Below, piece by piece: positions 6,925-53,315 of a DNA stretch of 63,943 bases (position 1 is the first letter of the stretch; every line of letters begins with the position of its first letter). Under the pieces are notes generated by a model, which worked only from the letters and a program-made list of their open reading frames with translations, was not told where the DNA came from and did not search any database. The DNA comes from Candidatus Avilachnospira sp. (GTDB lineage Bacteria > Bacillota > Clostridia > Oscillospirales > Oscillospiraceae), in contig JAZSCX010000107.1 in NCBI GenBank assembly GCA_045530865.1, positions 1-63,943 of the forward strand, given 5' to 3'. The translations under genes were made by a program, and so were the position numbers.

Positions 6925-7878
6925 TTATGCAAACAACATTTGCGTCAGCACATAGATGATGGGGACGGTCAGGATGGAACCAAGGCTGGACAGCAGCACC
7001 ATGCTGGCGCCGGTCTGGCAGTCCTCCTTATAGGCGGCGGGGAACACCACCACGTTCATACCGCAGGGGCTGGCGAAGGTCAATGCAGTCAGTGTGGCGA
7101 TGATCAGGGGAGCCTTGATCAGGTACAGGACCAGCAGGAACACGGCGGGGAACACCAGCAGCCGGAGCAGACAGTAGACGTAGATTTTCTTGTTATGGAA
7201 CACCTGCGAGAGAGGATAGTCGGCAATGGAGAAACCGGCCAACAGCAGGGCAACGGGGATATAGCACTGGCTCAGGTCATAGACGGTGTCGGAGATGAAA
7301 ACGGGCATCCAGTTGGGTGCGCCCAGCAGACCGAGGATCATACCGACTACCATGGCTAGGGTATTAATATTGATGCATTTTGCCAGATTGGTACGCCAGG
7401 AGGTTTTTCCGTGGGAGGGCTGCATTTGCGCAATGCCCCAGGAGTAGGTTAGAATGGAGCCGGCGATGGCAAACAGGCCGAATTGGAACACACCGGACAT
7501 GCCAAACAGGGAGAGCATAATGGGAAGGGCGACTGCGGCAGTGTTGGGCATTGCAATGGCGTAGCGGTACACACCTCGCATATACACATCATCCGAGGAG
7601 AGAGATCTGGATAGAGGGTAGGAAAGGAACAGGCCGATCAGGTAAAACGCCGTTCCGTAGAGTACCAGAGGAAGGTTGCTGGAAAGACTGGTCAGCTTGC
7701 ACTCCATCATGTTGGAATACAGTGTCATGGAGGGAATAAAGAGCATGGTCAGGAATTTGGAAAAGACATTGCCCATTTCCCGGGAGACCAGATGGGACTT
7801 GTTCATGGCAAAGCCCAGAGACAGCAGAATCAAAATCTGCAGCATCTGATTTAATGTAAGGGTGAATGCTTCAAACAT
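6925..7878 (-). CDS. AEC (auxin efflux carrier) family transporter
   Basis: A 317-aa polytopic membrane protein, MFEAFTLTLNQMLQILILLSLGFAMNK..., with the two-half AEC-like topology. Confidence 0.7.
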   Translation of the reverse strand: MFEAFTLTLNQMLQILILLSLGFAMNKSHLVSREMGNVFSKFLTMLFIPSMTLYSNMMECKLTSLSSNLPLVLYGTAFYLIGLFLSYPLSRSLSSDDVYMRGVYRYAIAMPNTAAVALPIMLSLFGMSGVFQFGLFAIAGSILTYSWGIAQMQPSHGKTSWRTNLAKCININTLAMVVGMILGLLGAPNWMPVFISDTVYDLSQCYIPVALLLAGFSIADYPLSQVFHNKKIYVYCLLRLLVFPAVFLLVLYLIKAPLIIATLTALTFASPCGMNVVVFPAAYKEDCQTGASMVLLSSLGSILTVPIIYVLTQMLFA

Positions 7879-7930
7879 AGCGGTTTCCTCTTGTTATGTA
7901 AGTACGGAGTGGAAGATCGGATTTTGCAAG

Positions 7931-7956
7931 CGGCGCGCCGGGTCGTCGCGCCCTAC
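7931..7956. repeat. short GC-rich hairpin of the GTAGGGC-headed family
   Basis: The minus strand reads GTAGGGCGCGACGACCCGGCGCGCC. Relatives lie at 28275-28299, 45879-45908 and 60822-60848. Confidence 0.5.
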
Positions 7957-7980
7957 ATGTCAGGCGATACTTCGCCAATA

Positions 7981-8005
7981 CAGCCCGGCTTGAAAAGCCG
8001 GGCTG
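7981..8005 (-). terminator. stem-loop downstream of the TIM-barrel isomerase gene
   Basis: CAGCCCGGCT-TGAAA-AGCCGGGCTG lies 10 nt after the stop at 8016. The T-run on the minus strand is weak. Confidence 0.4.
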
Positions 8006-8015
8006 TAAACTTGTA

Positions 8016-9056
8016 TTAGATGTCCTTGAGCACGCTCTCGCGGAGAATCTTGTAGATGTGGGGAGGATTGCCGTCCTGCTTCTGCAGCTCCTTGATCTTG
8101 TCGTGGGGCAGGGAAGCGGCCAGACGCATCATGTGGTTGTTCATGCGGACGAACTCGGTAGTGGCTTCGATGCCGTCCATGCGTGCGGGCCAGTTGTCCA
8201 TGATGAACCAGCCGTTCTTGTCATGCAGGTCCATGTTGACATAGCCGATCTGCTGCAGCTTCCAGAAGAACTCCAGACCCTGCCAGAAGCTGACGGTGCC
8301 GAAGATCAGGTCATCGTCGAAGCGGCCCATGTTGTCATTCAGGTGGATCATGGCCAGCAGATCAAAAGCGTTGGCCAGAGCGACACTCTCTGCGGGGTTC
8401 TCATTGCCGAACAGAGCATGGCCGTAGTCCACGATCAGCTTGCAGTTGTCATAGCCGGTCATCTTGTTGACTTCCTGACACAGCAGGATGACCTTGCTGA
8501 CATCGGAAGCATACTGATGGGTCAGAGGCTCGTAGTTCTTGTATTCGAGGGTGCACTTGACGTTCTTGTTGTGACCTGCAATCTCGGCGATGCAGTCTCT
8601 CATGTACTTGTAGTGGGTGACATAGTCATCCTGGAACGGATAGTTGTAGCCGTCGTGAGCCATCCAGAACATAATGTCCACAGCATCGGCTGCTTCTGCC
8701 CAGTCCATGTGACGCTTGCCCAGCTCCACGATGTCGCGGCGGGTCTGAGGATCACGGGCGGCGAAGGTGCCATACTTCCAGTGAGCCTTGGTGTAGTTGT
8801 CGGGGCCGCAGGAACCGACGACGAAGCCGTACTGTGCCAGCTTGTCCTTGTAGGCGATGGGATCGTCCATCTCTTCGCCCAGATACGTGCCGTAGCCGAT
8901 GGCGCTCATGCCGCCGATCTTGGCGAACATTTCCAGCTTTTCTTCGAAGGTGGGCATCTTCATCAGAGGCTTGTAGCCTTCATCGACGAAGCGGTCACAC
9001 ATATTGCTGAAGGTCGCGCCGGCGCACATCAGCTTCATAACATAATTGTCTGCCAT
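8016..9056 (-). CDS. sugar (phosphate) isomerase/epimerase, xylose-isomerase-like TIM barrel
   Basis: 346 aa with a metal-ligand-like pattern (...MAHDGYNYP..., ...LEYKNYEP..., ...VDYGHALF..., ...HLNDN...). RBS GGGAGG is present. Confidence 0.65.
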   Translation of the reverse strand: MADNYVMKLMCAGATFSNMCDRFVDEGYKPLMKMPTFEEKLEMFAKIGGMSAIGYGTYLGEEMDDPIAYKDKLAQYGFVVGSCGPDNYTKAHWKYGTFAARDPQTRRDIVELGKRHMDWAEAADAVDIMFWMAHDGYNYPFQDDYVTHYKYMRDCIAEIAGHNKNVKCTLEYKNYEPLTHQYASDVSKVILLCQEVNKMTGYDNCKLIVDYGHALFGNENPAESVALANAFDLLAMIHLNDNMGRFDDDLIFGTVSFWQGLEFFWKLQQIGYVNMDLHDKNGWFIMDNWPARMDGIEATTEFVRMNNHMMRLAASLPHDKIKELQKQDGNPPHIYKILRESVLKDI

Positions 9057-9511
9057 TTAGAGGTACCTCCCTGTGTAAATTTGAGAGCCTGCCTGCGGAA
9101 AATACGCATACTTCCGCCTTGGATATGGCTGGTTGGGGATATTATACGCCCTTATTATAAATTTGTAAAGTTATAAATATATTATAAGTGAAAGATAATG
9201 CTAAGGATCTGAAAACCCGAAAAAGAAAAACGGCGAAAAAAATTTAAATTCTTTTTCTAAATTTGGCGAAAACCTGTTCATCTGGTACAATATGTTTGCG
9301 AATTGTGCACTATTGTGCATGTTTACAATGTTTGGACATCTGTTTTGTGCAGACTGCATATTGACGGTGCTGCCGGGAAAATGGTAAAATGAGTGCAAAT
9401 GGGATTAGTATGGACTTAAAACTTTTAAGTGATTTGTAATAAAAAATAATTAAAAGATAAGTAAACTGTTTCAGTACAGATCCGATTGAGGAAAGGTAAG
9501 GTACGTCTGCC

Positions 9512-10930
9512 ATGGGTGAACGTGTTGTTCTGGCGCTGGATATCGGCGCAAGCTCGGGACGGGGTATTCTCGGTTATTATAATGAGGAAACCGGCGTTCT
9601 GAGAACGGAGGAAGTCCATCGCTTCGTTCATGAGTTTATCCGTCTCAGCGGCGGTGTCTATTGGGATTATATCGGCATCTACAGAGGTGTTCTGGACTGC
9701 CTGCGTGCGTGCAAAAAGAGAAACATTCCTCTGGAATGCATCGCCATCGATACCTGGGGTCAGGACTATGCCTACATTGGCAAAAACGGTGAGATTCTTG
9801 GCCTGCCCCGCAGCTACCGGGATCCTAAGCCCGAACCCTATGCAGGAGATCTGGAAAAGGATCTTTGCATGGACAGCCATGCTTTCTGCATGCGTACCGG
9901 CGGCCCTGCCGGCGTGATCTCCACGGCACGGCAGCTGTACTATGACCGCCGCTTCCGTACCGATCTCTTCCATCAGGCCCGTTACTGGGTCTATATGCCC
10001 TATCTGTTCGTCTATCTGATGTCTGATGTGGTGGGCTACGATGTGACCCTGCCTTCTCCGGGTGAGCTGCTGGATATCAACACCATGGATATCAGCCCCA
10101 AAACCGCCACGGCTGTGGGTATCGAAAAGATCACACCGCCCCGGTTCCGCAGTGCCACTATCATGGGTCATACCAACCGCGCCGTGTTTGAGGAGACCGG
10201 CTATGAGGCTCTGCCCATCGCCTGTATCGATGCCCACGATACCTCCAGTGCTGTGGATGCCATTCCAGACACCGGCGATTTCCTCTGGATCAGCAGCGGT
10301 ACTTATAATATGTTCGGCGCTGTCATGCAGGAGACCATCCTCAATGACAAGCTGCTGGAGATCGGCTGCCGCAACACCCCTCTGGGTGACGGACGTTCCT
10401 GCCTGATGTGCGGCGCTGCCGGTATGTATTTCATCAACCAGTGCATGAAGTACTGGGCAGAGCACGGCATTGAGGTCACCTTCCCACAGCTGACGGCTTA
10501 TGCCATGGAGCACCGCAGCGACGCGTGGTTCGATTTCAAGGATCTGCCTTCCGTTCCCGTCAATATGCCCGCAGAGATCTGCGCCGCCATTGAAAAGCAG
10601 GGCTTCGCAGCTCCCACTACGCCGGAGGATCTGTATGTGATCTTTGCCAACTCTCTGGCAAAGGAAACGGCAGAGGTACTGCTGAAGCTGGAAAAAGCGC
10701 TGGACCGCAGCTTCAATCTGGTCTATGTGCTGGGCGGCGGCTCCAAGGCTTCTGCAGTCAATATGCGCATTGCGGAGCTCAGCGGCAAAAAGCTCTATAC
10801 CGGACTGACGGAGGCCGCTTCCGTAGGCAATCTGCTGTTCCAGCTCATTGCCATCGGCGCCATCTCCCGTGAGGAAGCTGCCGATGTGTCCCGCAGATCC
10901 TTCCTGCTGGAGGAGTTCGGAGCGCAGTAA
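9512..10930 (+). CDS. FGGY-family carbohydrate kinase, rhamnulokinase-like
   Basis: The N-terminal LALDIGASSGRGILG, IAIDTWGQDY and the C-terminal VLGGGSKA match the RhaB-like branch of FGGY kinases. Confidence 0.75.
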   Translation: MGERVVLALDIGASSGRGILGYYNEETGVLRTEEVHRFVHEFIRLSGGVYWDYIGIYRGVLDCLRACKKRNIPLECIAIDTWGQDYAYIGKNGEILGLPRSYRDPKPEPYAGDLEKDLCMDSHAFCMRTGGPAGVISTARQLYYDRRFRTDLFHQARYWVYMPYLFVYLMSDVVGYDVTLPSPGELLDINTMDISPKTATAVGIEKITPPRFRSATIMGHTNRAVFEETGYEALPIACIDAHDTSSAVDAIPDTGDFLWISSGTYNMFGAVMQETILNDKLLEIGCRNTPLGDGRSCLMCGAAGMYFINQCMKYWAEHGIEVTFPQLTAYAMEHRSDAWFDFKDLPSVPVNMPAEICAAIEKQGFAAPTTPEDLYVIFANSLAKETAEVLLKLEKALDRSFNLVYVLGGGSKASAVNMRIAELSGKKLYTGLTEAASVGNLLFQLIAIGAISREEAADVSRRSFLLEEFGAQ

Positions 10931-10945
10931 AGGCGGTTGATATGG

Positions 10946-11212
10946 ATGAGCATCAAAATCATTGACGGTCATTTCTACACCGGCCCGGTTCCGGAGCAGT
11001 ATGTGGATGACCGCATGCTGGAGACAACACTCCGGGTGATGGATCATCTGGATATTGAACGTGCCATCAGCGCCAACTCCTATATGTTTATTGGACATCA
11101 GTTCGAGCAGTGTCCCATGCTGGGCGTTGTCTACGGCGCCCAGATCTCCGATCTGGAAAAGGAAAAGATCCTGCGCCACAATGCACTCCGTGTGTTCTTC
11201 CATGAGGAATAA
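10946..11212 (+). pseudogene. internally deleted remnant of an amidohydrolase paralogue
   Basis: MSIKIIDGHFYTGP...VMDHLDIERAISAN is fused to ...PMLGVVYGAQISDLEKEKILRHNALRVFFHEE. These align to residues ~1-45 and ~215-260 of the next gene (11256-12038). The HxH motif has decayed to GHFY. Confidence 0.7.
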
Positions 11213-11255
11213 AACATAAACAGCTCCAACAATCAATAAGGAGGTAGACAAACTT

Positions 11256-12038
11256 ATGAGCTTCAAAATCATTGATACACATATGCACTTTGGCCCCGAA
11301 CCCGCACGGATGGTTCCTGATCACTCCGTTGAGAGCCTGGTCGCCATTATGGACCATCTGGACATCGAAAAGGGCATCAGCGCCAACTGCATGTCCCTGA
11401 GCAAAAACCTGTGGGAACAGGGTCTGCAGGATGACTTCGCTGCCTACGAAAAGAGCGGCGGCCGTATTTTCAGTTTCTTCGGTTATGATCCCCTGTACAT
11501 CGATCAGTGCGTGGAAGTCATGCGCAGACATGCCGGTGATCCCCGCTGCGTAGGCATCAAGATTCATCCCAGCGGCTCCAAGGTCAAAGCCGATGACGAG
11601 CGCTACCGCCCTGTCTGGGAGATGGCCAGAGAGCTGAAGCTGCCCCTGATGTCCCACACCTGGGATGTCTCCACCTACAACCCCAACCAGATCTATGCAG
11701 TTGCAGGTCTGTTTGAGAAGTACATCGCTGAATATCCCGATGTTACCTTCGTGTTTGGTCACTGCGGCGGCCGCTACCACGGTATCAAGCAGGCCATTGA
11801 GATCGGCAAGAAGTACCCCAATGCCCACTATGACATCACAGGCGATATCTGGCTCAACGGCTTCATCGAAGAGCTGGTGGACGGCGTCGGCGCAGACCGT
11901 ATCGTCTACGGCAGTGACTGGACCATGATCGAGCAGCGTCCCATGCTGGGCGTTGTGTACGGCTCCAACCTGCCCGCAGTGGACAAGGAAAAGATCCTGC
12001 GGTATACTGCGGCTCGTATTTACTTTGGCGAAGAATAA
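11256..12038 (+). CDS. amidohydrolase-2 (TIM-barrel metal-dependent hydrolase/lactonase/decarboxylase) family protein, catalytic-type
   Basis: DTHMH (HxH), GIKIHPS, MSHTW, FGHCGGR and YGSDW are all present. RBS AAGGAGG. Confidence 0.8.
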   Translation: MSFKIIDTHMHFGPEPARMVPDHSVESLVAIMDHLDIEKGISANCMSLSKNLWEQGLQDDFAAYEKSGGRIFSFFGYDPLYIDQCVEVMRRHAGDPRCVGIKIHPSGSKVKADDERYRPVWEMARELKLPLMSHTWDVSTYNPNQIYAVAGLFEKYIAEYPDVTFVFGHCGGRYHGIKQAIEIGKKYPNAHYDITGDIWLNGFIEELVDGVGADRIVYGSDWTMIEQRPMLGVVYGSNLPAVDKEKILRYTAARIYFGEE

Positions 12039-12071
12039 CGCCGGCTGATATCTGATATAGGAGGTATTATC

Positions 12072-12866
12072 ATGAGCGTACAGAAGCGCAGCGATGAATT
12101 CAAAAAGTGGATCAACGAATCTGACATTATTGATATTGACGTGTGGTGGGATCCCACCTTCGATCAGGGCTTCGTTACCTACAAGGATTTCGAGAAGCAG
12201 ATGGCTGATTACTACGAATTCGGTCTGAAGAAGTGCATCGTCACCAACAAGGCATCCATGATCCGCGATGCCGCCGAAGGCAACGCCGAACTGGCAGAAA
12301 TCATCAAGGGCAAGGAAAACATGTATGGCTGCATGGTGGTTGTTCCTGAGATGGGCTATGTGGACGATAAGGGCGAAGCCTATGTCCAGAGCCTGCTGGA
12401 TCAGGGCTTTGTGGCTGCCCGCATCTTCCCCAAGACCTACATCCACTCCATGCAGGAATACTGCATCGGCCCCATCCTGGATACCCTGGAAAAGCTGGGC
12501 GTGCCCCTGATGCTGTGGCATACTGAGGCCACCTGGGATGACATGGACCGCATCTGCACCAACCATCCCGACCTGAATGTTATCGTGGAAGGCCATGACC
12601 GAAAGCTGCTGTATCATGCTCGCGACTATGTCGGTCTGATGCGCAAGCACAAGAACTTCTTTGTGGAGACCCACAATCTGGTTCTGTTCAACGACATCGA
12701 GACGATCTGCAAGTACTGCGGCTGCGATCAGCTGCTCTACGGCTCCTACTACCCCTACATGACTCCCTACTTCTCTCTGTACCCCGTCATGCAGGCTGTT
12801 ATCCCCGAAGAGGAGATTCAGAAGATCATCGCCGGCAACGCCAAGCGCATCTTCAAGATCGGCTAA
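12072..12866 (+). CDS. amidohydrolase-2-like protein lacking the HxH and strand-8 Asp motifs
   Basis: It is homologous to 47026-47820. The N-terminus reads IDIDVWWD instead of HxH, and LLYGSYYPY replaces GSDW. RBS AGGAGG. Confidence 0.7.
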   Translation: MSVQKRSDEFKKWINESDIIDIDVWWDPTFDQGFVTYKDFEKQMADYYEFGLKKCIVTNKASMIRDAAEGNAELAEIIKGKENMYGCMVVVPEMGYVDDKGEAYVQSLLDQGFVAARIFPKTYIHSMQEYCIGPILDTLEKLGVPLMLWHTEATWDDMDRICTNHPDLNVIVEGHDRKLLYHARDYVGLMRKHKNFFVETHNLVLFNDIETICKYCGCDQLLYGSYYPYMTPYFSLYPVMQAVIPEEEIQKIIAGNAKRIFKIG

Positions 12867-12877
12867 ATACAAAAAAT

Positions 12878-12903
12878 CGGAGCCATCCTTTTGGAAGGCT
12901 CCG
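12878..12903. terminator. bidirectional stem-loop between convergent genes
   Basis: CGGAGCCATCC-TTTT-GGAAGGCTCCG, with one mismatch. Confidence 0.5.
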
Positions 12904-12914
12904 AGGGGAAAACT

Positions 12915-13670
12915 TTAAACGATCATCACGTCCACGCCGGCTTTCTGCAGGGCATCGATGGCCTCCGGCTTTGCACCGGAGTCTGTGATCAGCAGATCAA
13001 TGGAGTCCACACTGCCCATCTGCACGAAGCTGACGGTTCCGACCTTGGTGTGATCGGCAACCACAATGGTTTTCTTGGCGCACTCCATGACCACCTGGTT
13101 CAGCTCGCTTTCAAAGTGCATGGCGTTGGTGATACCCATTTTGGCATCCACGCCCTCCACGGAGATGAACAGCTTATCGAGATTGAAGCTGCGAACCTGC
13201 TGAATGGTCTGCACACCGAAGGTGGCGCCCAGCTGCCGGTTCATGGTGCCGCCCAGAACGACAACCTTGGCGTTGGGAAGCTTCTGCAGCTCCAAAGCAA
13301 TGTGCATGGAGTTGGTAACGGCAATAAAATGCACTGCCGGGTCAATAAAGCGGGCCACCTGACGGGTGGTGCTGCCGGTGTAAAACAGCACGGCGTCTCC
13401 GTCCTCGATCAGTTTTGCGGCGGCCTTGCCGATCCGTTCCTTCTCGTCGATGTGGGAGACCAGTTCAAAATTGTCGTTGGCGATCCGGTTATTGCTGGCA
13501 ACGACCTTTCCGAACAGCCGCTTGCAGACGCCCAGCCGTTCCAGATAGATCAGGTCACTCCGCAGGGTGACGGAAGATACGTTAAACATTTGGGCAAGCT
13601 GACTGGTTTGCAGTTCCTGACGCTCCATAATCAGGCGCTTGAGTTTTTCCCGTCTTTGTACAATGTCCAT
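12915..13670 (-). CDS. DeoR/GlpR-family transcriptional repressor
   Basis: MDIVQRREKLKRLIMERQELQTSQLAQMFNVSSVTLRSDLIYLE is a DeoR HTH, followed by a C-terminal sugar-phosphate sensor domain. The start was chosen at the internal ATG that has an RBS. Confidence 0.85.
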   Translation of the reverse strand: MDIVQRREKLKRLIMERQELQTSQLAQMFNVSSVTLRSDLIYLERLGVCKRLFGKVVASNNRIANDNFELVSHIDEKERIGKAAAKLIEDGDAVLFYTGSTTRQVARFIDPAVHFIAVTNSMHIALELQKLPNAKVVVLGGTMNRQLGATFGVQTIQQVRSFNLDKLFISVEGVDAKMGITNAMHFESELNQVVMECAKKTIVVADHTKVGTVSFVQMGSVDSIDLLITDSGAKPEAIDALQKAGVDVMIV

Positions 13671-13766
13671 CGTGCTCTTTCCTTTGTTTTTGTTATTTTT
13701 TAATTTCAAAAGATTTTCATTTGCTAATATCTATATTATATTATCTATTTAATGTTTGTCAACCCG

Positions 13767-13784
13767 GCTTTCCCGCGGGAAAGC
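13767..13784. promoter_or_regulatory. perfect 18-bp palindrome in the divergent deoR/operon promoter region
   Basis: GCTTTCCCGCGGGAAAGC is GC-rich within an otherwise AT-rich 160-bp intergenic region. Confidence 0.4.
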
Positions 13785-13828
13785 ATCCAACACGTTTATA
13801 AAAATTTTTTATATATTTAGGAGGACAT

Positions 13829-14959
13829 ATGAAAACTGTTAAATTTGGTATTATCGGCTGTGGCCTGATGGGCAAGGAATTCGCCGGCGCTGCCGGTCGC
13901 TGGTCTCACCTGAACGAAGAGATCCCCGCTCCCGAAATCATCGCTGTCTGCGACGCCAACCCCGCTGCTCTGGAATGGTTCACCAACCGTGTGGACACCA
14001 TCAAGTACACCTACAACGATTACAAGGAACTGCTGGCCAACCCCGAGGTCGAGGCTATCTACTGCGCCGTTCCTCACGTTCTGCACAAGCAGATCTACGT
14101 TGATATCATCGACTCCGGCAAGCACTTCCTGGGTGAGAAGCCCTTCGGCATGGATCAGGATGCCAACAACGCCATCATCGAGGCATGCAAGCGTCATCCC
14201 AACTCCGTGGTCCGCTGCGCCTCCGAGTTCCCCTTCTATCCCGCCTGCCAGAAGCTGATCTCCTGGATCAAGGAAGGCAAGGTCGGCCGCATTCTGGAAG
14301 TCAACGCCGGTCTGAACCACTCCTCCGATATGGATCCCAACAAGCCCATCAACTGGAAGCGTATCATCGGTGTCAACGGTGAGTACGGCTGCATGGGCGA
14401 CCTGGGCATTCACACCGAGCACGTTCCCTTCCGTATGGGCTGGATCCCCCAGAACGTCTGCGCCAAGCTGTGCAAGTACGTCACCGAGCGCCCCGACGGC
14501 AAGGGCGGCATGGCTCCCTGCGAGACCTGGGACAACGCCACTCTGGTCTGCGATGTGAAGGATGCCGACGGCAACGAATTCCCCATGACTCTGGAAATGA
14601 AGCGCATGAAGCCCGGCGCTACCAACGACTGGTATCTGGAAGTCTATGGCATGAAGTCCTCCGTGAAGTTCTCCTCCGATGACCCCAACGCCTTCTACTT
14701 CTCCCAGCAGATGGGCGCTGAGCAGGCATGGTGCCGCGTTGTTGTCGGCAACAAGCCCCAGTTCCCCACCGCCACCGGCGCCATCTTCGAGTTCGGCTTT
14801 GCTGACTCCATGCTGCAGATGTGGGCTTCCTTCCTGAAGGAAATCGACGGTCAGGAAGTGGAATTCGGCTGCTTCCGTCCCGAGGAAAGCATCATCTCCC
14901 ACAAGCTGCACACCGCTGCTCTGCGTTCCCAGAAGGAAAAGACCATCGTTTCGCTTTAA
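13829..14959 (+). CDS. Gfo/Idh/MocA-family NAD(P)-dependent oxidoreductase
   Basis: MKTVKFGIIGCGLMGKEF is a Rossmann GxGxxG motif; EKP is seen in ...HFLGEKPFG.... RBS AGGAGG. Confidence 0.85.
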   Translation: MKTVKFGIIGCGLMGKEFAGAAGRWSHLNEEIPAPEIIAVCDANPAALEWFTNRVDTIKYTYNDYKELLANPEVEAIYCAVPHVLHKQIYVDIIDSGKHFLGEKPFGMDQDANNAIIEACKRHPNSVVRCASEFPFYPACQKLISWIKEGKVGRILEVNAGLNHSSDMDPNKPINWKRIIGVNGEYGCMGDLGIHTEHVPFRMGWIPQNVCAKLCKYVTERPDGKGGMAPCETWDNATLVCDVKDADGNEFPMTLEMKRMKPGATNDWYLEVYGMKSSVKFSSDDPNAFYFSQQMGAEQAWCRVVVGNKPQFPTATGAIFEFGFADSMLQMWASFLKEIDGQEVEFGCFRPEESIISHKLHTAALRSQKEKTIVSL

Positions 14960-14986
14960 TCTGCAATGAAAACAGGAGGACCGAAT

Positions 14987-16180
14987 ATGGATCCGAAAAT
15001 TTCCATTGGTATTGACAATTGTTTTGCCCTGAAGCGCTGGGTCACCCCCTCTGAGTGGGCCCGTGTGATCCGCGAAATGGGCATGAAGTACGTGGAAGGC
15101 GTGGCCGATCTGGAGATCGAGCCTCTGCTGACCCCCAAGGCCTGCCACGATCAGTGGATCGAGGAAGTCAACGAGCAGAAGGCCAAGCACGGCGTGCAGG
15201 TGGTCATGATGTACTCCAATGACTCCACCTATGATACGGCCGGTTTTGCCCATCCCGATGCCCGCATCCGCGATTACTATGTGGATGGCTGGTTTGACGA
15301 GTATATGCGCATCTCCGGCGCCATCGGCGCCGATGTGGGCTACTTTGTCCATGGTGTTCCCGAAGAGATCCTGTACAACAAGGCCCGCTATGAAGAAATG
15401 GGACGCAATGTGTATGACTGCATGAACCGCGTTGGCGATCAGGCCAAAAAGTATGGCGTGAAGCATGTGGCGCTGGAGCAGATGTACACCCCCCATCAGC
15501 CTCCCTTCACCATTGCCAGCATGCGCCGCCTGATGCAGCAGACCCTGAAGGACGGCCACTATCCTCTGTATGTTACCGAGGACGTGGGTCATCACTGCCC
15601 CTTCTATCTGCGTCCCACCGAAGAGACGCTGGTCAAGGGCTTTGCCCGTTACTGCCAGGATGGCTACATCCCCCTGTGGCTGGGCAGCCTGAAGGCACAG
15701 GATCTGTTCACCGGCGAACGCAAGGCAGGCCGTGACACCCTGCGCAAGGAAACCATTCAGGCCATTCTGGAGGATGTGCAGGAGAACGGTCACCTGTTCT
15801 CCGAAGAGAAGGACAATGACTGCTATCAGTGGCTCAAGGAACTGGGCTGCTGGTCTCCCACGGTCCATCTGCAGCAGACCAACGGCAAGTCCTCCGGTCA
15901 TGCGCCCTTCTCTCCCGAGGCCAACGAGGATGGCATCATCCATCCCGTCAAGATCCTGCGCGCCCTGAAGGAAGCCTACGATCAGCCCGAGGATCCCACC
16001 ATGCCTGAGCGCTGCGATCACATCTACCTGATCCAGGAGCTGTACCTGAGCACCAAGGATATCGGTTATCAGGGCTTGCACAAGCTGGGCTGGAGCACCG
16101 ATTATCTGCGTAAGTTCATTCCCAGAGACGATATGCCTCTGAGCGAACTGCTGGAATACAACAAGCACGTTGAATTTTAA
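14987..16180 (+). CDS. xylose-isomerase-like TIM-barrel protein (sugar isomerase/epimerase/dehydratase fold)
   Basis: MDPKISIGIDNCFALKRW...ALEQMYTPHQ...VTEDVGHH. RBS AGGAGG lies before the ATG at 14987. Confidence 0.7.
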   Translation: MDPKISIGIDNCFALKRWVTPSEWARVIREMGMKYVEGVADLEIEPLLTPKACHDQWIEEVNEQKAKHGVQVVMMYSNDSTYDTAGFAHPDARIRDYYVDGWFDEYMRISGAIGADVGYFVHGVPEEILYNKARYEEMGRNVYDCMNRVGDQAKKYGVKHVALEQMYTPHQPPFTIASMRRLMQQTLKDGHYPLYVTEDVGHHCPFYLRPTEETLVKGFARYCQDGYIPLWLGSLKAQDLFTGERKAGRDTLRKETIQAILEDVQENGHLFSEEKDNDCYQWLKELGCWSPTVHLQQTNGKSSGHAPFSPEANEDGIIHPVKILRALKEAYDQPEDPTMPERCDHIYLIQELYLSTKDIGYQGLHKLGWSTDYLRKFIPRDDMPLSELLEYNKHVEF

Positions 16181-16197
16181 TGAAGGAGAATATAAAT

Positions 16198-17736
16198 ATG
16201 CTGAAGAATATTTCCCGTTCCCTGGAAGATATGCTGGGCAAGCCCTATATGGATGCTGTCCAGGAAACCGCTGTTGCCCTGCTGGGTCTGGATCCCGCTG
16301 AGGCCAAGGCTCTGGCCACTGACAAGGTCGACTTCTATCCCGATTGCTTTGCTGCCCGCGCCGACGCCATGGCTGCCAAGGTTGGCCAGCAGGTCGTCAA
16401 CCCCTTCGTGAATGATCTGGTTGGTGCTCCCACCGAATCCTTCCGCAAGGCCACCCATGTCAATGCTTCCCCCATCGGCGGTATGGGTACCGTCCGTGTG
16501 GGTCAGGACGGCCGCGCTTACATCGCTGCCAAGTCCGAGCACTATCACATCCCTCTGGGCCACAACTTCCCCGGCTATAAGCTGGTCACCAAGGGCCGTC
16601 AGCTGGGCATCCTGAATGCTACCCACAACAACACCCGCGGCTACATCACCCGCCGCATGGAAGAGCAGATCGTCATGGACGCCAATGGCATCACCGAGCG
16701 CGGTGCTGAGCTGGATGCCATCATCGCTTCCAAGGAACCCAAGGTTCTGAACCGTCTGATCAGCCTGGAAACCGGCTCTCTGGCTGTGGAAGCTGCTCTG
16801 AAGATGATGCTGACCCGCTTCTACCGTCTGGACAAGACCTTTGGCGAGCCCAAGTACGCCGGCAAGACCCCCGTTTTCATGATCATGCAGGACAACGACG
16901 GCGGCCCCGAGGCTAACTACCACGGCACCACCATCTTCGCTCAGACCCTGCGCGGCATGTGGCCCGAGTTCCGTGGTGTCTGCGAGAACGCCGGCCTGTA
17001 CAAGGTAGTTCCTGTTAAGCCCAACGATCTGGCTGACTTTGAAGCAAAGATCAAGATGTACAACGAAGGCAACTACAAGACTGCCGGCTTCATGCATGAG
17101 ATCATCCTCATGAACTATGGCGGCATCCGCCTGACCAAGGAGTTCCTGCAGGGCGCTTATGCTCTGGCTGCACAGTATGACACTCCCACCCTGTCCGACG
17201 AGATCCAGTCCTGCATGTGGTACAAGGGCATGTTCCTGTTCCGCGAGTACGGCCTGAAGCCCGACTTCGTCATCATCGGCAAGGGCTTCCCCGGCGGCGA
17301 GTATCCTGCTTCTAAGGTCATCACCACCTATGAGATGGACAGCCTGAACCAGTTCGGCGCTCTGGTCACCAACGGTCAGGAAGAACTGGCCAGCCTGGCA
17401 TACCTGCTGACCATGGAATATGTCCGCGAGAACGGTGCTGAGATCGAGGCTATGGGCGCTCTGATCGAGAGCAAGCTGAACGAGCTGGCTGCCAAGTATC
17501 CCGCTCAGATCGACAAGATCGAGGGTCTGGCACATCTGGCTGCCATTCACTTCCAGACTGTGGAGGCCGCTGCCGAGTTCGCCAAGGTCGTCAACGGCAT
17601 GTGCATCGACGTCAGCGCACAGCTGTACAAGGCAAACTGCCCCCCTGCAGTTCTGCTGAAGCTGCCTCTGGTCACCAGCGAAGCTGTTCTGGATGTCTGC
17701 ATCGAGAAGTTTGAAGCTGCTCTGGCTCAGATGTAA
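16198..17736 (+). CDS. class-III (PLP fold type I) aminotransferase-like protein
   Basis: ETGSLAVEAALKM, DEIQSCMWYKGMFLFREYGLKPDFVIIGKGFPGGEYP (Schiff-base Lys context) and ATHNNTRG are present. RBS AAGGAG. Confidence 0.7.
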   Translation: MLKNISRSLEDMLGKPYMDAVQETAVALLGLDPAEAKALATDKVDFYPDCFAARADAMAAKVGQQVVNPFVNDLVGAPTESFRKATHVNASPIGGMGTVRVGQDGRAYIAAKSEHYHIPLGHNFPGYKLVTKGRQLGILNATHNNTRGYITRRMEEQIVMDANGITERGAELDAIIASKEPKVLNRLISLETGSLAVEAALKMMLTRFYRLDKTFGEPKYAGKTPVFMIMQDNDGGPEANYHGTTIFAQTLRGMWPEFRGVCENAGLYKVVPVKPNDLADFEAKIKMYNEGNYKTAGFMHEIILMNYGGIRLTKEFLQGAYALAAQYDTPTLSDEIQSCMWYKGMFLFREYGLKPDFVIIGKGFPGGEYPASKVITTYEMDSLNQFGALVTNGQEELASLAYLLTMEYVRENGAEIEAMGALIESKLNELAAKYPAQIDKIEGLAHLAAIHFQTVEAAAEFAKVVNGMCIDVSAQLYKANCPPAVLLKLPLVTSEAVLDVCIEKFEAALAQM

Positions 17737-17746
17737 GAAATACGCC

Positions 17747-17777
17747 AAAAAGCCGGCCTGCAAAGGCCGGCTTTTTG
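17747..17777 (+). terminator. rho-independent terminator
   Basis: AGCCGGCC-TGCAAA-GGCCGGCT followed by TTTTT. Confidence 0.8.
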
Positions 17778-17827
17778 GCAACGTTTTTTGATTGTTTGTC
17801 GTCTATACCCGTGAAAGGGTGATAACG

Positions 17828-41513: not shown

Positions 41514-42554
41514 TCAACCCTCCAGCTTTGCAAAGATCTCTTCCAGAACCTTGCTGATGGCGGCAGCCATGCTGAAGAAGCCCAGATCAGTGGGATGGCA
41601 GCCGTCCACGGTGCCTTCATCACCGGCAATGGCCATCAGCTCGGGACCGGACAGGAACCAGACGTTTTCATCACCGGCAGCCTTGGCCCGCTCATAGGTG
41701 CCCTTGACGATATCGCGGCGGGCGGTATCGTCCTCGTTCAGATAGAACTTGGGGCGGGACATCATGAGAATGGGCAGGTTGGGCTGGGCGGCACGGATGA
41801 TATCGAACATCCGGCCATGGTGGATGGCCAGCTCCTCCGTGGGGGAGTTGTGGTCATAGTCCATGACGAACACGCTCATCTTGAGGGATGCGATGTACTC
41901 CGCAATCTCTACTTCGCCTCTGGCGCTGCCGTTGAAGCCCAGACTGATGTAGTCGGAATCGAAGCGGCGGGCAACGATGTTGGCGTAGGCCATGCCGGAG
42001 CGGGAGGCACAGCCGCCATGGGTGATGGAGGAACCGTAATACACAATGGGGGTCATGCGGCTGTAGTCCGGGGCTTCCTCCAGCAGGCAGCCCTCTGCCA
42101 GACCGATGCTGACCTCGCTGGTCTCGGCAAAGAGGGGCATATTGATGGTGATGAGCTGCTTTCTGGGGATCAGCTCCACAATGGATTCATATTTATCCAC
42201 AAAATCGGCAGGGAACATGAAGGTGCCGCCGTACCGGGTCTCACCCTCGTAGGTGGTGTAGAGGTCATAGCCTGCGCCGCCGGTGAGGGTACCGTGGCAG
42301 TCTCTGGTGGTGGCAACCTTGGTGCGGATGATCACATAGGGACTGTCGGTAATAAAGCGGATTCTGCCGCCTGCACTGCAGCGGGAGTTGCCGTAAACGG
42401 GCTCGCTGACCTTCCGTGCGGCTTCATCGGGCATTCTGCGGAAGACGCCGTCCTCCATCCATACACCGTGGATGCGGAAGGGTGCCTGCTGGGGGTCAAA
42501 GAACGTTACATCAGGCTTGTTGATCTCGCCTCTGGTGGGATATTCCTTGTTCAT
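41514..42554 (-). CDS. SGNH/GDSL-type hydrolase with N-terminal GxDLY-type beta domain (carbohydrate esterase-like)
   Basis: GAGYDLY occurs in the N-terminal domain. YYGSSITHG is block I and DGCHPTDLG is block V (DxxH). Confidence 0.75.
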   Translation of the reverse strand: MNKEYPTRGEINKPDVTFFDPQQAPFRIHGVWMEDGVFRRMPDEAARKVSEPVYGNSRCSAGGRIRFITDSPYVIIRTKVATTRDCHGTLTGGAGYDLYTTYEGETRYGGTFMFPADFVDKYESIVELIPRKQLITINMPLFAETSEVSIGLAEGCLLEEAPDYSRMTPIVYYGSSITHGGCASRSGMAYANIVARRFDSDYISLGFNGSARGEVEIAEYIASLKMSVFVMDYDHNSPTEELAIHHGRMFDIIRAAQPNLPILMMSRPKFYLNEDDTARRDIVKGTYERAKAAGDENVWFLSGPELMAIAGDEGTVDGCHPTDLGFFSMAAAISKVLEEIFAKLEG

Positions 42555-42571
42555 AACGAAACTTCTTTCGA

Positions 42572-45500
42572 TCAGCGATAATAGTGGATGACCATGGGCT
42601 TCAGGATGCCGTTTTCGGTGCGCGTGGCGCCGAATTCGCCGATGGAGCAGGCGAACTGATTGGCACGGGTGGAGGTAACACGGATTTCAATGGTGTTTTC
42701 GCCTTCCTTCAGGAAGTCGGTCAGGTCAAATTCGTCTGCCAGCCACAGCTTCTGGCCCACATATTCGCCGTTGACATAGACCTTGGCGGCATCGTCGGTG
42801 TTGGTGGTCAGGGTGATCTTGCCAAAGCCCTGTTCGGGCGTGAAGGGGACCGTGTAGATGCCGTCGCCGGCGTAGTAATAGTAGCCCGCATTCTCCCAGC
42901 CGCCCACGGGGATGGTTTCTACAGGAGCGGTCATGCGGTCATTGTCCACGCAGAACGCGCCGGAGAGGTACACATAGGGCGGTACATTGGGCTTGCCGAT
43001 GTTCTCGGTATAGCCTTCCAACTCAAACAGGTTCTCGCCCACATGGAGCAGCTGGGCAATCTCCGTGGTGAAGTCGGCGGGAGACCAGCGGATGCAGTTG
43101 CAGCCGTATGCCAGTTCTGTGCCGTTGACAGCCAGACGGGTGACGCGATCGACCTCGGCGTTGAGAAGCACGCTTTCGGGCAGATGGTCGATCTGTACCT
43201 TGGCGCGGAGCTTGAAGGGGGCGTTCTTGGTCAGATGGACCCGGTCGGAGAAGCACATATACTTGCAGGCTTCCCACTCTCCGGTCAGGGGATTGAACAT
43301 TTCGTAGGTCAGGGGCAGATAGTTGCCGTCAGCGGCAGTGAAGGTGTAGGGGCCTTCCAGTGCCACGGCATGGTCCTCTTCGGCAGGCTGTGCGGAAGAG
43401 ACAGGCATTTCGGTGCTCTTGGGATCGCGGATGATGGCGATCATCTCATAGCCGTCCAGCATAAAGGACATTCTGCCGTTTTCCACGGTATAGGGCACCT
43501 CGGCGCTGGTCTCGTGGGTCAGGAGGTGCATACCGGGCAGGGCGTCAATTTCCACGGAGGCAGGCTTGGCATTATCATTGAAGATAAAGTAAACCTCGGA
43601 CTCTTCGTTGCTGCGCTTGGAAATATACACGCCGGTGTCGGCACAGATATTCAGCACCTTGCCGCCGACGATTTCCCGGAAGGCGGTGCGGTACAGACCG
43701 GCATCCAGCGGGAATGCGGGAGGATTGATGAAGTATGTGCTGCCATCAGAGGTGACGTTGGCGGCGGGCAGGAAGGGCTTCCAGTTGTAGCCTGCGTCAA
43801 AGCCTTCGCCGGTGTCCACATTGACGCCTGGGACGGCATGGGTGAACACGGTGGTGACGTTATGAGCCCGCAGTTCTTCCAGCAGCGCCTTGGTTTCCTT
43901 GTTGATGTAGAACATTCTGGGGAATACCAGAGCGTCGTAGCGATAGCCGAAGGCCTCCACATAGCCATCGTGGACGGTGATCTTGTCGGTCATATGCTCG
44001 GAGAACAGATCGTAGCCGATGCCCTCCATCAGCAGAGCTTCAATGGTGTCTACATAGGAGCGGTTTTCGGGCAGATCCAGATTGACGATCTCGTTCCACT
44101 TGTTCTGCATCCACAGATACCATTCCTGCTCCTGCTGCATGATGGGGATAAACACCAGCACACTGCTGTCGGGCTTGGTGGCAGCGGACAGGGCAGAGAA
44201 GGAGGCCATATAGCCGCCCAGATCGCGGTACTGGGGGTACAGCGTATTGACGAAGGAGTGGTTGGGAGGCAGTGCGCCGCAGTAGGTCTTGGCAGCGCCG
44301 CCCATGGAATAGTGGGCGCCCATGTACTGGATCCAGTTGACGCCCTGCACCATCAGGCGGTTGGCAATGCGCTGCATGGTGGGCAGACGCATATACCAGC
44401 CGGAGCCGGTGTAGGTTTCGCAGAGCACGCGATCAGAGCCGCAGAACTTGGCGGCGGAAGCGGAGAGCTTGGGTGCGGTATCAAAGGACAGCCAGTCGAT
44501 CTTCAGAGAGGAGAAGATGGAATCGAGACCGGGAATGTCGAACAGGGTCAGCTCTTCCAGCATATCGCCCTGGAACAGGTGGCCGGCAACGTTTTCCTCA
44601 CCGCCGAAGTGTCCGGTGAAGATCAGGTTGTTGTCATGGCACCACTGGCTGTACTGGCGCATGAAGCAGTCAAAGTACATCCGCTTGACGGTGGCGCGGT
44701 AATCATGGACGGCCTTGATCTCCTCGGGGGTCTTGGCGGGAATGGTCCACAGGGTGTACAGCCAGGGCAGGATAGAGTAGCCGTGATCCTTTTCAAATTC
44801 TGCCGGGAAGCTGTCGCACCAGGGGCCTGCGATGGAATAGTCGAAGTGGCGCAGGGAAGTGGGCTCATCGGTAAAGGCGCCGCGGACGGTCTTGCCGAAT
44901 TCGTCGCCGATGAACTGCTTGTAGCGGCCGTGGGTCAACTCCAGAAACTTGGCAACGGCGTCGGGATTGAACATATCCACATATCCCAGAATGTTGTCAG
45001 CACCGGCGCGTCCGGTACCGGAGGGCAGCAGCTGCAGATTGTACTCAACAAAATAGAACAGGGCGCGGCCGCCGAGGTGGGTGGAGTTGTGGACGTATTC
45101 CAGATTGGTGTACATACCGTGTTTTTCCAGCTTGCACTGGTCGGTGATGTCCTCCACATAGGTCTTACCGTCCAGCTCGGTAATCAGCTGTGCGCCGATA
45201 AATTCACCGGGGCGGACGACGGAAACACGGTGGCTGGGGCCGTAGAGCACATGATCCTCCACCCGCAGTTCCTTCTGGCGATATTCGGGGAAGTCACGGC
45301 AGAGGATACCACCGGCGGTGCCGGAGGGGAACTCGTACTCGTCATAGATCCAGTAGTACATACCCAGTCGCTTGGCCTCCTTGACCACGTGCTGGATCAG
45401 CTCCATGTAGCGGTCGGAAAGGTACTCAATGCCGAAGCCCACGGCGGGATGGATGAAGAAGTTGGTGATATTCTGCTGGCGGAATTTTTCCATCTCCCAG

Positions 45501-45610
45501 GTGATGCGCTCTTCCGTGACTGTGTCATTCCAGAACCACATCATCAGGGGGCCAAAGTCGGTATGGGGCGTTTTGAATTCCTGAATCAGAGAATTGCAGT
45601 CTTTTTTCAT
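42572..45610 (-). CDS. large glycoside-hydrolase-like protein (GH106 alpha-L-rhamnosidase-like; family assignment tentative)
   Basis: 1012 aa. The N-terminus reads PLMMWFWNDTVTEERI...NITNFFIHP. The C-terminal jelly-roll reads ...VYVNGEYVGQKLW...GENTIEIRV. RBS GAGGGA precedes the ATG at 45610. Confidence 0.6.
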   Translation of the reverse strand: MKKDCNSLIQEFKTPHTDFGPLMMWFWNDTVTEERITWEMEKFRQQNITNFFIHPAVGFGIEYLSDRYMELIQHVVKEAKRLGMYYWIYDEYEFPSGTAGGILCRDFPEYRQKELRVEDHVLYGPSHRVSVVRPGEFIGAQLITELDGKTYVEDITDQCKLEKHGMYTNLEYVHNSTHLGGRALFYFVEYNLQLLPSGTGRAGADNILGYVDMFNPDAVAKFLELTHGRYKQFIGDEFGKTVRGAFTDEPTSLRHFDYSIAGPWCDSFPAEFEKDHGYSILPWLYTLWTIPAKTPEEIKAVHDYRATVKRMYFDCFMRQYSQWCHDNNLIFTGHFGGEENVAGHLFQGDMLEELTLFDIPGLDSIFSSLKIDWLSFDTAPKLSASAAKFCGSDRVLCETYTGSGWYMRLPTMQRIANRLMVQGVNWIQYMGAHYSMGGAAKTYCGALPPNHSFVNTLYPQYRDLGGYMASFSALSAATKPDSSVLVFIPIMQQEQEWYLWMQNKWNEIVNLDLPENRSYVDTIEALLMEGIGYDLFSEHMTDKITVHDGYVEAFGYRYDALVFPRMFYINKETKALLEELRAHNVTTVFTHAVPGVNVDTGEGFDAGYNWKPFLPAANVTSDGSTYFINPPAFPLDAGLYRTAFREIVGGKVLNICADTGVYISKRSNEESEVYFIFNDNAKPASVEIDALPGMHLLTHETSAEVPYTVENGRMSFMLDGYEMIAIIRDPKSTEMPVSSAQPAEEDHAVALEGPYTFTAADGNYLPLTYEMFNPLTGEWEACKYMCFSDRVHLTKNAPFKLRAKVQIDHLPESVLLNAEVDRVTRLAVNGTELAYGCNCIRWSPADFTTEIAQLLHVGENLFELEGYTENIGKPNVPPYVYLSGAFCVDNDRMTAPVETIPVGGWENAGYYYYAGDGIYTVPFTPEQGFGKITLTTNTDDAAKVYVNGEYVGQKLWLADEFDLTDFLKEGENTIEIRVTSTRANQFACSIGEFGATRTENGILKPMVIHYYR

Positions 45611-47002: not shown

Positions 47003-47025
47003 AGTGGAATACCTCCTGTCATTGG

Positions 47026-47820: not shown

Positions 47821-48045
47821 AAACAAAACTCCTTTGATAGAATATTTGAACGGATAAGCGGATTGCGGATTATACAAAGAAAGACATTGTGGAGCGTCTC
47901 TCTGAATTACAGGTTATTGCAGCACCTGACTTTAGCTTATGATACAGCCGACAGGGAAGATAGTCAAGCACGAATTCAACGTAGATTTACGAAAAATTAT
48001 TCATCGGAACCCGTAAGGTACGAGCACCTCCGATGGCAAATTAAA

Positions 48046-48082
48046 TGCAAAACAGGCGAGAGACATCCAACGTCTCTCGCCT
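48046..48082 (-). terminator. rho-independent terminator (minus strand)
   Basis: The minus strand reads CAGGCGAGAGAC-GTTGGAT-GTCTCTCGCCTG followed by TTTTGC. Confidence 0.7.
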
Positions 48083-48088
48083 GAAAAA

Positions 48089-48958: not shown

Positions 48959-48977
48959 AGGCACCAACAAAAACCGT

Positions 48978-53290: not shown

Positions 53291-53315
53291 ACCCAAATAA
53301 AAAGGAGTGCTTGCT

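Follow-up and report, generated by a model that had tools for sequence, protein, structure and literature searches.

Known sugar enzymes around a deep-branching class-III PLP enzyme: a conserved, uncharacterised gene module with a possible role in amino-sugar catabolism

On sugars, couples of a dehydrogenase and a pyridoxal 5'-phosphate (PLP) enzyme convert hydroxyl, keto and amino groups (C-OH, C=O, C-NH2) into one another. In the couples described for kanosamine (NtdC/NtdA, KabC/KabA) and for 3-amino sugars (WbpB/WbpE, GnnA/GnnB), a nicotinamide adenine dinucleotide (NAD) enzyme of the Gfo/Idh/MocA (GFO) fold is encoded beside the PLP enzyme, a DegT/DnrJ/EryC1-type aminotransferase that acts on nucleotide- or phospho-sugars in biosynthesis. 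A GFO-fold dehydrogenase is also paired with a xylose-isomerase-like TIM barrel, in the MocA/MocC and IolG/IolE/IolI systems. We analysed a contig of Candidatus Avilachnospira sp. (JAZSCX010000107.1, assembly GCA_045530865.1; its 63,943 nucleotides are called the window below) in which a three-gene operon encodes a GFO oxidoreductase, a TIM barrel of this kind and a class-III PLP enzyme. The module to which this operon belongs resembles both groups of systems but departs from the amino-sugar couples in that its PLP enzyme is of a deep-branching class-III type (PF00202) and its setting is catabolic, with a kinase, an isomerase, a hydrolase, transporters and glycosidases. It is not of the Ntd/Kab type, its aminotransferase falling in PF00202 rather than DegT and a phosphatase being absent. 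We show here that the operon is one arm of a larger module at about 6925–17736, and that this module is real, conserved and uncharacterised, with known enzyme families gathered around the class-III PLP enzyme.

The initial annotation had described a DeoR gene divergent from a tight three-gene operon with strong ribosome-binding sites (RBSs) and a strong terminator. Calling of open reading frames (ORFs) in the window recovered the ORFs of this region at the positions given there, and the gaps, AGGAGG motifs and terminator stem bear the description out. The operon lies on the + strand and begins with the gene of the Gfo/Idh/MocA NAD(P) oxidoreductase (13829–14959, 376 aa; 60.9 bits for PF01408, the cut-off being 24), whose ATG at 13829 follows an AGGAGG by 5 nt. 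It continues with the 397-aa xylose-isomerase-like TIM barrel (14987–16180; PF01261, 44.9 bits against 31.1) and ends with the 512-aa divergent class-III PLP enzyme (16198–17736; PF00202, 77.7 bits against 30.5), the hallmark of the module. All three assignments made earlier, like that of the DeoR gene, are above the curated Pfam cut-offs, and the lengths agree. The longest ORFs of the TIM barrel and the PLP enzyme start at 14966 and 16180; from RBS position and homologue alignments we set the starts at 14987 (AGGAGG 8 nt upstream) and 16198 (GAAGGAGA), which gives intergenic gaps of 27 and 17 nt. An intrinsic terminator (17744–17779, + strand) closes the operon with a 16-bp stem containing 10 GC pairs, followed by a T-run.

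The divergent DeoR-family repressor gene (12915–13709, - strand; HTH_DeoR 39 bits, DeoRC 155.9 bits) has as its best NCBIfam model AgaR, the repressor of N-acetylgalactosamine (GalNAc) genes, at 184 bits and below the cut-off of 260. It is preceded by a consensus sigma-70-type promoter (13735–13762, - strand; TTGACA-16-TATAAT, 12/12 matches). Between this promoter and the operon RBS lies an 18-bp perfect GC-rich palindrome (13767–13784), a candidate operator that occurs once in the window at up to 3 mismatches. No second copy, and so no sign of a shared operator, was found 5' of the kinase operon or elsewhere in the window. The link to DeoR seen in the window recurs: DeoR genes (family 10) are part of, or adjoin, 13 related loci, and the two sister-family loci described below have one as well.

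We retrieved 89 loci that encode homologues of the PLP enzyme, called their genes with a codon-usage model that reproduced the genes of the window, and clustered the proteins. Family counts below refer to 83 related loci and partner counts to the 38 non-redundant loci in which the PLP enzyme is flanked by four or more genes on each side. An FGGY kinase is present in 32 of the 38 and an Amidohydro_2 enzyme in 26, while a GFO-fold NAD enzyme and an aldose-ketose isomerase are each found in 22. The genes are tightly coupled: 34 related loci have a GFO-fold gene directly 5' of the PLP enzyme, at a median gap of 21 nt, and 31 have the kinase directly 3' of it (median gap 12 nt, several genes overlapping). 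The kinases, transporters and glycosidases of these loci make for a catabolic context, as the initial annotation had proposed. Its limits were drawn too narrowly, however: the three genes had been taken as the unit, whereas the most constant partners are the FGGY kinase and the Amidohydro_2 enzyme, and the 397-aa TIM barrel occurs in only 6 of the 83 loci.

In the commonest layout, the GFO and PLP enzymes are accompanied by an AraA-like isomerase, an FGGY kinase of xylulokinase-like type and an Amidohydro_2 enzyme of 339 aa. The first of these partners is homologous to L-arabinose isomerase over its full length (profile E = 1e-44) and has invariant Glu and His residues. The kinase has FGGY gluconokinase as its second-best model. 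The 339-aa Amidohydro_2 enzyme keeps the HxH, Lys, His, His and Asp residues and is therefore probably metal-dependent; in searches of the Protein Data Bank (PDB) it gave weak, partial matches only and no close solved relative. The type found in the window is rarer (12 loci). Its kinase is rhamnulokinase-like, its amidohydrolase is split into two subunits, and its AraA-like isomerase is replaced by the 397-aa TIM barrel, by a 346-aa rhamnose-isomerase-like TIM barrel, or by both. All parts of this type are present in the window at 8016–12866, adjoining a transporter of the AEC family. Because these partners occupy 6925–17736 together with the operon, the tight three-gene operon is one local arrangement of a larger unit. 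What is observed directly is which genes make up the set, that they are conserved, and that the cofactor and metal residues of their enzymes are intact.

The family relationships of the PLP enzyme agree with a module of some age. A HMMER search of 1.84 billion representative sequences delineated a tight core family and sister families of about 470 residues that are 27–31% identical to it. One sister locus encodes a kinase, an AraA-like isomerase, DeoR, the PLP enzyme, an Amidohydro_2 enzyme, a sodium symporter and a GH109 protein with a twin-arginine (TAT) signal; in the other, an AraA-like isomerase, a GH109-like protein, a major facilitator superfamily (MFS) transporter, a kinase, an Amidohydro_2 enzyme, a GFO protein and DeoR lie beside the PLP enzyme. 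Judged by these sequence comparisons, the module is old. A PLP-enzyme tree places the window beside three loci of its own type (two from Lachnospiraceae, one from an unclassified Clostridia metagenome-assembled genome, or MAG), with a Shimodaira-Hasegawa-like approximate likelihood ratio (SH-aLRT) support of 95. More generally, context types cluster on this quick tree, a pattern to which shared ancestry contributes.

Is the 512-aa protein a functional PLP enzyme? Its PF00202 match spans residues 103–515 of the 518-aa frame. Lack of the Schiff-base lysine on proper alignment would have refuted the initial annotation, but the residue is present: K368 (518-aa frame; IIGKGFPGGE) aligns with the lysine of Thermotoga ArgD (2e54) and is invariant in 14 close homologues. 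Among 27 sequences that include the sister families, it is kept in all but one (P0127, discussed below), and Asp D340 (DEIQ), the residue that binds the pyridine nitrogen, is invariant. The TGSLAVEA and YHG motifs are in place and the phosphate-binding motifs invariant. An AlphaFold2 (AF2) model, with a predicted local distance difference test (pLDDT) score of 91.2, has as its best Foldseek matches YgjG, ornithine aminotransferase (OAT) and ArgD (probability 1.0, template modelling (TM) scores of 0.62–0.66). The protein thus shares the fold (type I, of class-III architecture), the PLP lysine, the Asp and the phosphate-binding motifs with YgjG (4uox), OAT and ArgD, but differs from them in its extra N-terminal region of about 100 residues, in the absence of both carboxylate arginines and in its low identity: the nearest solved structures, generic class-III transaminases, are about 19% identical. 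PDB searches by sequence, profile and fold returned generic class-III relatives only. Against the named class-III equivalogs of NCBIfam (ornithine, acetylornithine, putrescine, gamma-aminobutyrate (GABA), BioA and glutamate-1-semialdehyde (GSA) aminomutase), the best score was 58.7 bits for ornithine aminotransferase, with a cut-off of 378; none of the scanned module proteins reached an NCBIfam equivalog. The family has invariant motifs of its own, NATHNNTRGY and EIQSCMW, as well as an invariant Arg/His-rich motif, NATHNNTRGYITR, and an invariant Arg C-terminal to the YHG motif.

Individual relatives deviate from this pattern. In P0127, a full-length sister of the core family, Asn replaces the PLP lysine (VVVGNGSPAGEH), and this paralogue is perhaps inactive. 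When fused forms were sought, a single metagenomic protein of 924 aa emerged (P0278, locus L097:1443-4217), which joins the PLP enzyme to a domain that is uroporphyrinogen decarboxylase (URO-D)-like, neither kinase nor oxidoreductase. This domain is 30% identical to family 51 of L040 and L054, and separate URO-D-like genes occur in the PLP-enzyme operons of L040, L054, L057 and L058.

What does the module do? We favour, at a little short of an even chance, a catabolic funnel under DeoR control, with an amino-deoxy sugar or the N-acyl form of one as its substrate. Such a reading gives each conserved enzyme a step and agrees best with the window; the best model of the DeoR protein, AgaR, although below its cut-off, and the accessory genes described below also speak for it. 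The sugar would be taken up, possibly after release by the GH106-like enzymes encoded at 42–53 kb, and the two-subunit Amidohydro_2 hydrolase would strip its acyl group or open the ring. The class-III PLP enzyme would then remove the amino group from one sugar carbon to leave a keto-sugar, and the GFO enzyme, the gene of which is translationally coupled to that of the PLP enzyme, would reduce the ketone with NAD(P)H. The TIM-barrel isomerases could turn the aldose into a ketose, a place that the AraA homologue would fill in most relatives, and the FGGY kinase would phosphorylate the ketose. DeoR-type repressors generally sense sugar phosphates, and the sugar phosphate would enter central metabolism and probably relieve DeoR repression. 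In this scheme we infer the order of the steps, the substrate, the amino acceptor and which carbon bears the nitrogen. A 6-deoxy-hexosamine-type sugar is suggested as the substrate of the window type by its rhamnose-isomerase-like, rhamnulokinase-like and GH106-like genes. For the common type with its AraA-like and GH109-like genes, homology to AraA points to a galacto configuration and suggests a galacto-configured hexosamine, for example galactosamine (GalN) or GalNAc. Bacteroides thetaiotaomicron instead uses a GalNAc 1-kinase (PMC11992087).

Several points weigh against such a funnel. In class-III transaminases, the Arg of the DVRGxGLM motif binds the carboxylate of the amino-acid or oxo-acid partner. 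This position is Glu in the PLP family (IEGLAHL) and T, H, M, Q or N in the sister families; the second Arg (FHGRT) is absent too, as judged from the motif (NYHGTT) alone, which lies outside the aligned structure matches. With the carboxylate-binding Arg missing from the whole clade, standard glutamate- or alanine-linked transamination cannot be assumed. The PLP family has no characterised member, and its close relatives have no solved structure. The kinase and the Amidohydro_2 enzyme are more constant partners than the oxidoreductase; we know of no N-deacetylase among PF04909 members, and GH106 enzymes usually attack plant glycans, in which no amino sugar is known. The genome already encodes NagA and a fragment of RhaA. 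Finally, some variants of the module end instead in enzymes of sugar-acid metabolism, namely a HisD-like dehydrogenase, a PfkB kinase, HpcH and dihydrodipicolinate synthase (DHDPS) aldolases, or an enolase-superfamily dehydratase.

Some of these points would fit the main rival account, which we consider rather unlikely and in which the substrate is again an amino sugar but the PLP enzyme works after the kinase. It would be an ammonia-lyase, a phospho-lyase or a GSA-aminomutase-like enzyme, and its substrate a phosphorylated amino-sugar acid or amino-polyol; the oxidoreductase would oxidise the amino sugar at C1, the Amidohydro_2 enzyme would open the lactone and the FGGY kinase would phosphorylate the amino-aldonate. 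The co-substrate arginine is missing across the clade, as such a reaction would allow, and the PLP enzyme and the kinase form the most conserved pair, with genes that often overlap or abut. The invariant NATHNNTRGYITR and the invariant R252 (512-aa numbering, alignment A3) could hold a phosphate. PF04909 includes L-fucono- and L-rhamnono-lactonases, the GFO enzyme resembles the L-glucose 1-dehydrogenase 5ya8, and the kinase of the common type has the affinity to gluconokinase noted above. The variants point the same way, one in Christensenellaceae combining the HisD-like dehydrogenase with the PfkB kinase and the HpcH and DHDPS aldolases, another carrying the enolase-superfamily dehydratase with a short-chain dehydrogenase/reductase (SDR). 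A lyase route would, however, leave the AraA-like and TIM-barrel isomerases, present in 22 of the 38 full loci and in both sister loci, without a role. Moreover, the rhamnulokinase-like kinase of the window and the xylulokinase-like kinase of the common type both resemble ketose kinases, an alpha-amino acid substrate would normally require the missing arginine, and we know of no class-III enzyme with such an activity. A described model for this account is the DgaE pathway, in which a PLP enzyme likewise strips nitrogen from a phosphorylated amino-sugar acid and the resulting 2-keto-3-deoxy sugar acid goes to an aldolase; there the substrate is phosphorylated by the phosphotransferase system (PTS), and an isomerase and a GFO enzyme are absent. 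DgaE presumably belongs to another PLP family than the 512-aa enzyme. The type of reaction itself is already known (PMC9529869).

One of these variants has an elaborate gene content. In Christensenellaceae (L059:5776-20799; also L058 and L069), the FGGY kinase is lacking and the PLP enzyme is accompanied by a PfkB kinase, an XRE-cupin regulator and an enzyme of the histidinol-dehydrogenase family (433 bits). Two Amidohydro_2 genes, an SDR, a NagA-like deacetylase, an aldo-keto reductase (AKR), a second class-III enzyme that is GSA-aminomutase-like, HpcH and DHDPS aldolases and two phosphoesterases complete the locus. To judge from these genes, the variant resembles the final, sugar-acid stage of a pathway for a related amino compound.

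The oxidoreductase bears on a different explanation. Its C-terminal domain model scored 23.9 bits, just below the cut-off of 27, and its full-length matches are to solved GFO enzymes, the nearest being 4fb5, levoglucosan dehydrogenase (6a3f) and scyllo-inositol/L-glucose dehydrogenase (5ya8). Against the levoglucosan dehydrogenase model it reached 82.6 bits, with a cut-off of 650, and its second-best NCBIfam match is the model of UDP-N-acetylglucosamine (UDP-GlcNAc) 3-dehydrogenase. At these low scores, it resembles C3-oxidising enzymes (levoglucosan dehydrogenase, DgpA) and L-glucose/scyllo-inositol 1-dehydrogenase alike. Its family (family 2) occurs in 44 of the 83 loci, mostly directly 5' of the PLP enzyme. 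Where it is missing, other proteins may stand in: a cytoplasmic GH109-like GFO-fold protein adjoins the PLP enzyme in L028, L030, L052 and L060, and a GH4 protein with a 3-keto-disaccharide-hydrolase-like protein replaces the oxidoreductase in one group of loci.

The module might then handle a neutral sugar or glycoside via a 3-keto intermediate, like the routes for levoglucosan, C-glycosides and 3-keto-glycosides, with the PLP enzyme in an auxiliary role such as deoxygenation dependent on pyridoxamine 5'-phosphate (PMP) or trapping of a reactive keto-sugar. We regard this as improbable. The best models and structures of the GFO enzyme do include C3-oxidising families (levoglucosan dehydrogenase, DgpA, glucuronide 3-dehydrogenase, BT_2158/2159), its GH109-like, GH4 and 3-keto-disaccharide-hydrolase-like stand-ins all work via C3 oxidation, and such routes typically have TIM-barrel partners. 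Every score is nevertheless far below its family cut-off, and the known routes via 3-keto sugars do without a PLP enzyme. PMP-dependent sugar dehydratases have lost the Schiff-base lysine, which is present here, and the PLP enzyme, as the most conserved gene of the module, is no accessory.

The 397-aa TIM barrel, which takes the place of the AraA-like isomerase in the 6 loci that have it, has as the best solved match of its family profile Brucella EryC (4k3z; 62.5 bits, E = 3.6e-16), which serves in erythritol catabolism as tetrulose-4-phosphate racemase. The likeness is remote and confined to two segments, and the window protein is about 70 residues longer. EryC acts downstream of an FGGY kinase. 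Residues E171, D206, H209/H210, H301 and E358 are invariant in the 397-aa protein, which from these residues is probably a metal-dependent isomerase or epimerase.

These relationships speak to the substrate class preferred by the initial annotation, an inosamine-like aminocyclitol of the rhizopine or scyllo-inosamine type whose products would feed the iolC-, iolJ- and iolA-like genes at 55–60.7 kb. A set of GFO enzyme, TIM barrel and aminotransferase is formally compatible with it, the pairing recalls MocA/MocC and IolG/IolE/IolI, and the GFO enzyme has weak matches to inositol dehydrogenases. Yet the comparison with these systems turned out poorly, with scores far below the equivalog cut-offs: the oxidoreductase reached 60.6 bits against the iolG model (TIGR04380; cut-off 355), and the profile of the EryC-like TIM barrel matched IolI only at E = 0.16. 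The TIM barrel is missing from 77 of the 83 loci. The conserved partners are sugar isomerases and ketose-type FGGY kinases rather than IolB/C/D; aldose-ketose isomerases and such kinases would have no substrate in a cyclitol route, and their presence argues for an open-chain sugar rather than a cyclitol. The only basis for a connection with the iol genes is a 36%-identical class II aldolase, a homologue of which lies 3' of the kinase in L001 and the near-identical L051 and nearby in L086. We therefore give scant credence to an aminocyclitol. Of the earlier interpretation, the kind of pathway, catabolism of a nitrogen-bearing carbohydrate, is upheld; its extent is not, and its preferred substrate class is probably mistaken. 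The 3-amino-3-deoxy sugar that it offered as an alternative may still be the substrate.

Aminotransferases are also paired with dehydrogenases in the azasugar cluster (GabT1, Yktc1, GutB1), whose aminotransferase acts on a ketose phosphate (PMC8382821). By analogy with the formation of 1-deoxynojirimycin, an imported aldose would be isomerised and phosphorylated, and the ketose phosphate would be aminated at C2 by the class-III enzyme, dephosphorylated and oxidised to an amino-polyol or iminosugar. This scheme could assign a role to every conserved enzyme, and azasugar clusters are recognised by their pairing of a ketose-phosphate aminotransferase and a dehydrogenase (PMC8382821), but we hold the scheme to be very improbable. 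The module has a kinase in place of a phosphatase: the recurrent families of the 83 loci, the neighbours of which were annotated in part, include no recognisable phosphatase. Its dehydrogenase is of the GFO type rather than a zinc-dependent alcohol dehydrogenase (Zn-ADH), and DeoR or AraC regulators, uptake transporters and glycosidases are marks of catabolic loci. In the azasugar survey, a kinase has no occurrence, and Clostridium appears only as a genus with 8 putative producers (PMC8382821).

Returning to the amino-sugar funnel, the remaining parts of the module lie 5' of the operon in the window. The AEC-family (Mem_trans) transporter (6925–7878, - strand; PF03547, 75.7 bits) is the candidate uptake system; its homologues (family 29) stand at the end of the PLP-enzyme operons of L030, L034 and L088. 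Beside it lies the gene of the 346-aa xylose-isomerase-like TIM barrel (8016–9056, - strand; PF01261, 48.2 bits), whose likeness to L-rhamnose isomerase is weak (65.6 bits against RhaI_grampos, below the cut-off of 531) and whose homologues, 56% identical, occur in the window-type loci L010, L011, L016 and L036. The FGGY sugar kinase (9512–10930, + strand), with FGGY_N and FGGY_C domains, scores 193 bits against the rhamnulokinase model TIGR02627, below its cut-off of 528. A kinase of the same type (family 11) lies directly 3' of the PLP-enzyme gene in L016, L018, L021, L024, L025 and L036.

Next on the + strand comes the amidohydrolase pair. Its first gene encodes the Amidohydro_2 metal hydrolase (11256–12038; PF04909, 110.7 bits), a member of family 21, which is found in window-type loci, and its second an Amidohydro_2-like partner subunit (12072–12866; PF04909, 26.5 bits) of family 20, which adjoins the 397-aa TIM barrel in L016, L018 and L036. 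A short amidohydrolase-gene relic (10937–11212, + strand) precedes the pair, with tblastn matches to both ends of the adjoining 260-aa amidohydrolase.

Further into the window, a block at 41514–54005 contains two GH106-like paralogues accompanied by two SGNH esterases, an AraC regulator and a second amidohydrolase pair. The first glycosidase (42572–45676, - strand; PF17132, 49.8 bits, partial match) is 52% and the second (50351–53290, + strand; PF17132, 61.6 bits) 50% identical to a GH106-like protein of about 1020 residues (family 45), which is encoded inside the PLP-enzyme operon of L032 and, in L021 and L024, just 3' of this operon past a divergent DeoR gene. The second amidohydrolase pair (46223–47877, - strand) is 46% identical to the family 20 subunit of L036, to which the first pair (11256–12866) is less close (29% identical). 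Each of these three features is probably linked to the module. With orthologues of its glycosidases and amidohydrolase pair lying inside the PLP-enzyme operons of other genomes, the block is probably part of the same pathway.

Neighbours that recur in the other loci include GH109-like proteins (19 loci), GH20, GH29, GH2, GH88, heparinase II/III-like proteins and sialate O-acetylesterase, along with sugar ATP-binding cassette (ABC), MFS and AEC transporters and AraC or DeoR regulators. Because several of these act on hexosamine-bearing glycans, they lend slight support to an amino sugar as the substrate of the common type.

The RhaA fragment mentioned above (G000:C19:8524-8736) consists of the last 72 residues of a canonical L-rhamnose isomerase and lies near a contig end, the remainder being missing from the contig; RhaM was not found in this 83%-complete genome. 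With the RhaA fragment and NagA also in the genome, the module is not simply the sole route for rhamnose or N-acetylglucosamine. A plain L-rhamnose route was rejected, given the RhaA fragment and given that a nitrogen-free sugar leaves the PLP enzyme without a role.

How widespread is the module? A relative of the PLP enzyme is encoded in at least 578 genomes of a species-level collection. The best 80 of these matches all come from Bacillota (two within one MAG), nearly all of them uncultured MAGs, and the sources named among these 80 are guts of ruminants, rabbits or humans; the genus Avispirillum comes from bird guts. When the contig collection was queried for an exact copy of the window's own protein, there was no match. 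In about 16 loci from Avispirillum and relatives (L065–L089), the PLP-enzyme/kinase pair lies directly 3' of yfhO-ruvA-ruvB without other pathway genes nearby; in L076, an amidohydrolase and an isomerase follow five genes 3' of the pair. Look-alike clusters in the Atlas include some from Lentisphaerota and Hydrogenedentota. Two look-alike clusters have been named automatically after a coding sequence of Podospora anserina (Pa_7_10880), which hints that fungi hold relatives of the PLP family.

Public names for relatives of the PLP enzyme are either generic ("aminotransferase class III-fold PLP-dependent enzyme") or one other name, which is almost certainly wrong. Literature searches on aminotransferases and 3-keto sugars, azasugars, galactosamine in Clostridia, GH109 with aminotransferases, and glucosaminate found no work on the gene set of the module. 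It is possible, although we are inclined to doubt it, that a class-III PLP family whose reaction or co-substrate is new to the fold begins with the 512-aa protein, for example an amino-sugar(-phosphate) lyase or aminomutase or a carboxylate-independent transaminase, and that with the kinase it constitutes an unrecognised route for an amino sugar of host or microbial glycans in hundreds of gut and rumen Clostridia and in some Lentisphaerota and Hydrogenedentota. It is unusual for a sugar-utilisation module to be centred on a PLP enzyme. The module could uncover new chemistry in a well-studied enzyme fold, and the identity of its substrate would close a gap in gut carbohydrate and nitrogen metabolism and mend a systematic annotation error.

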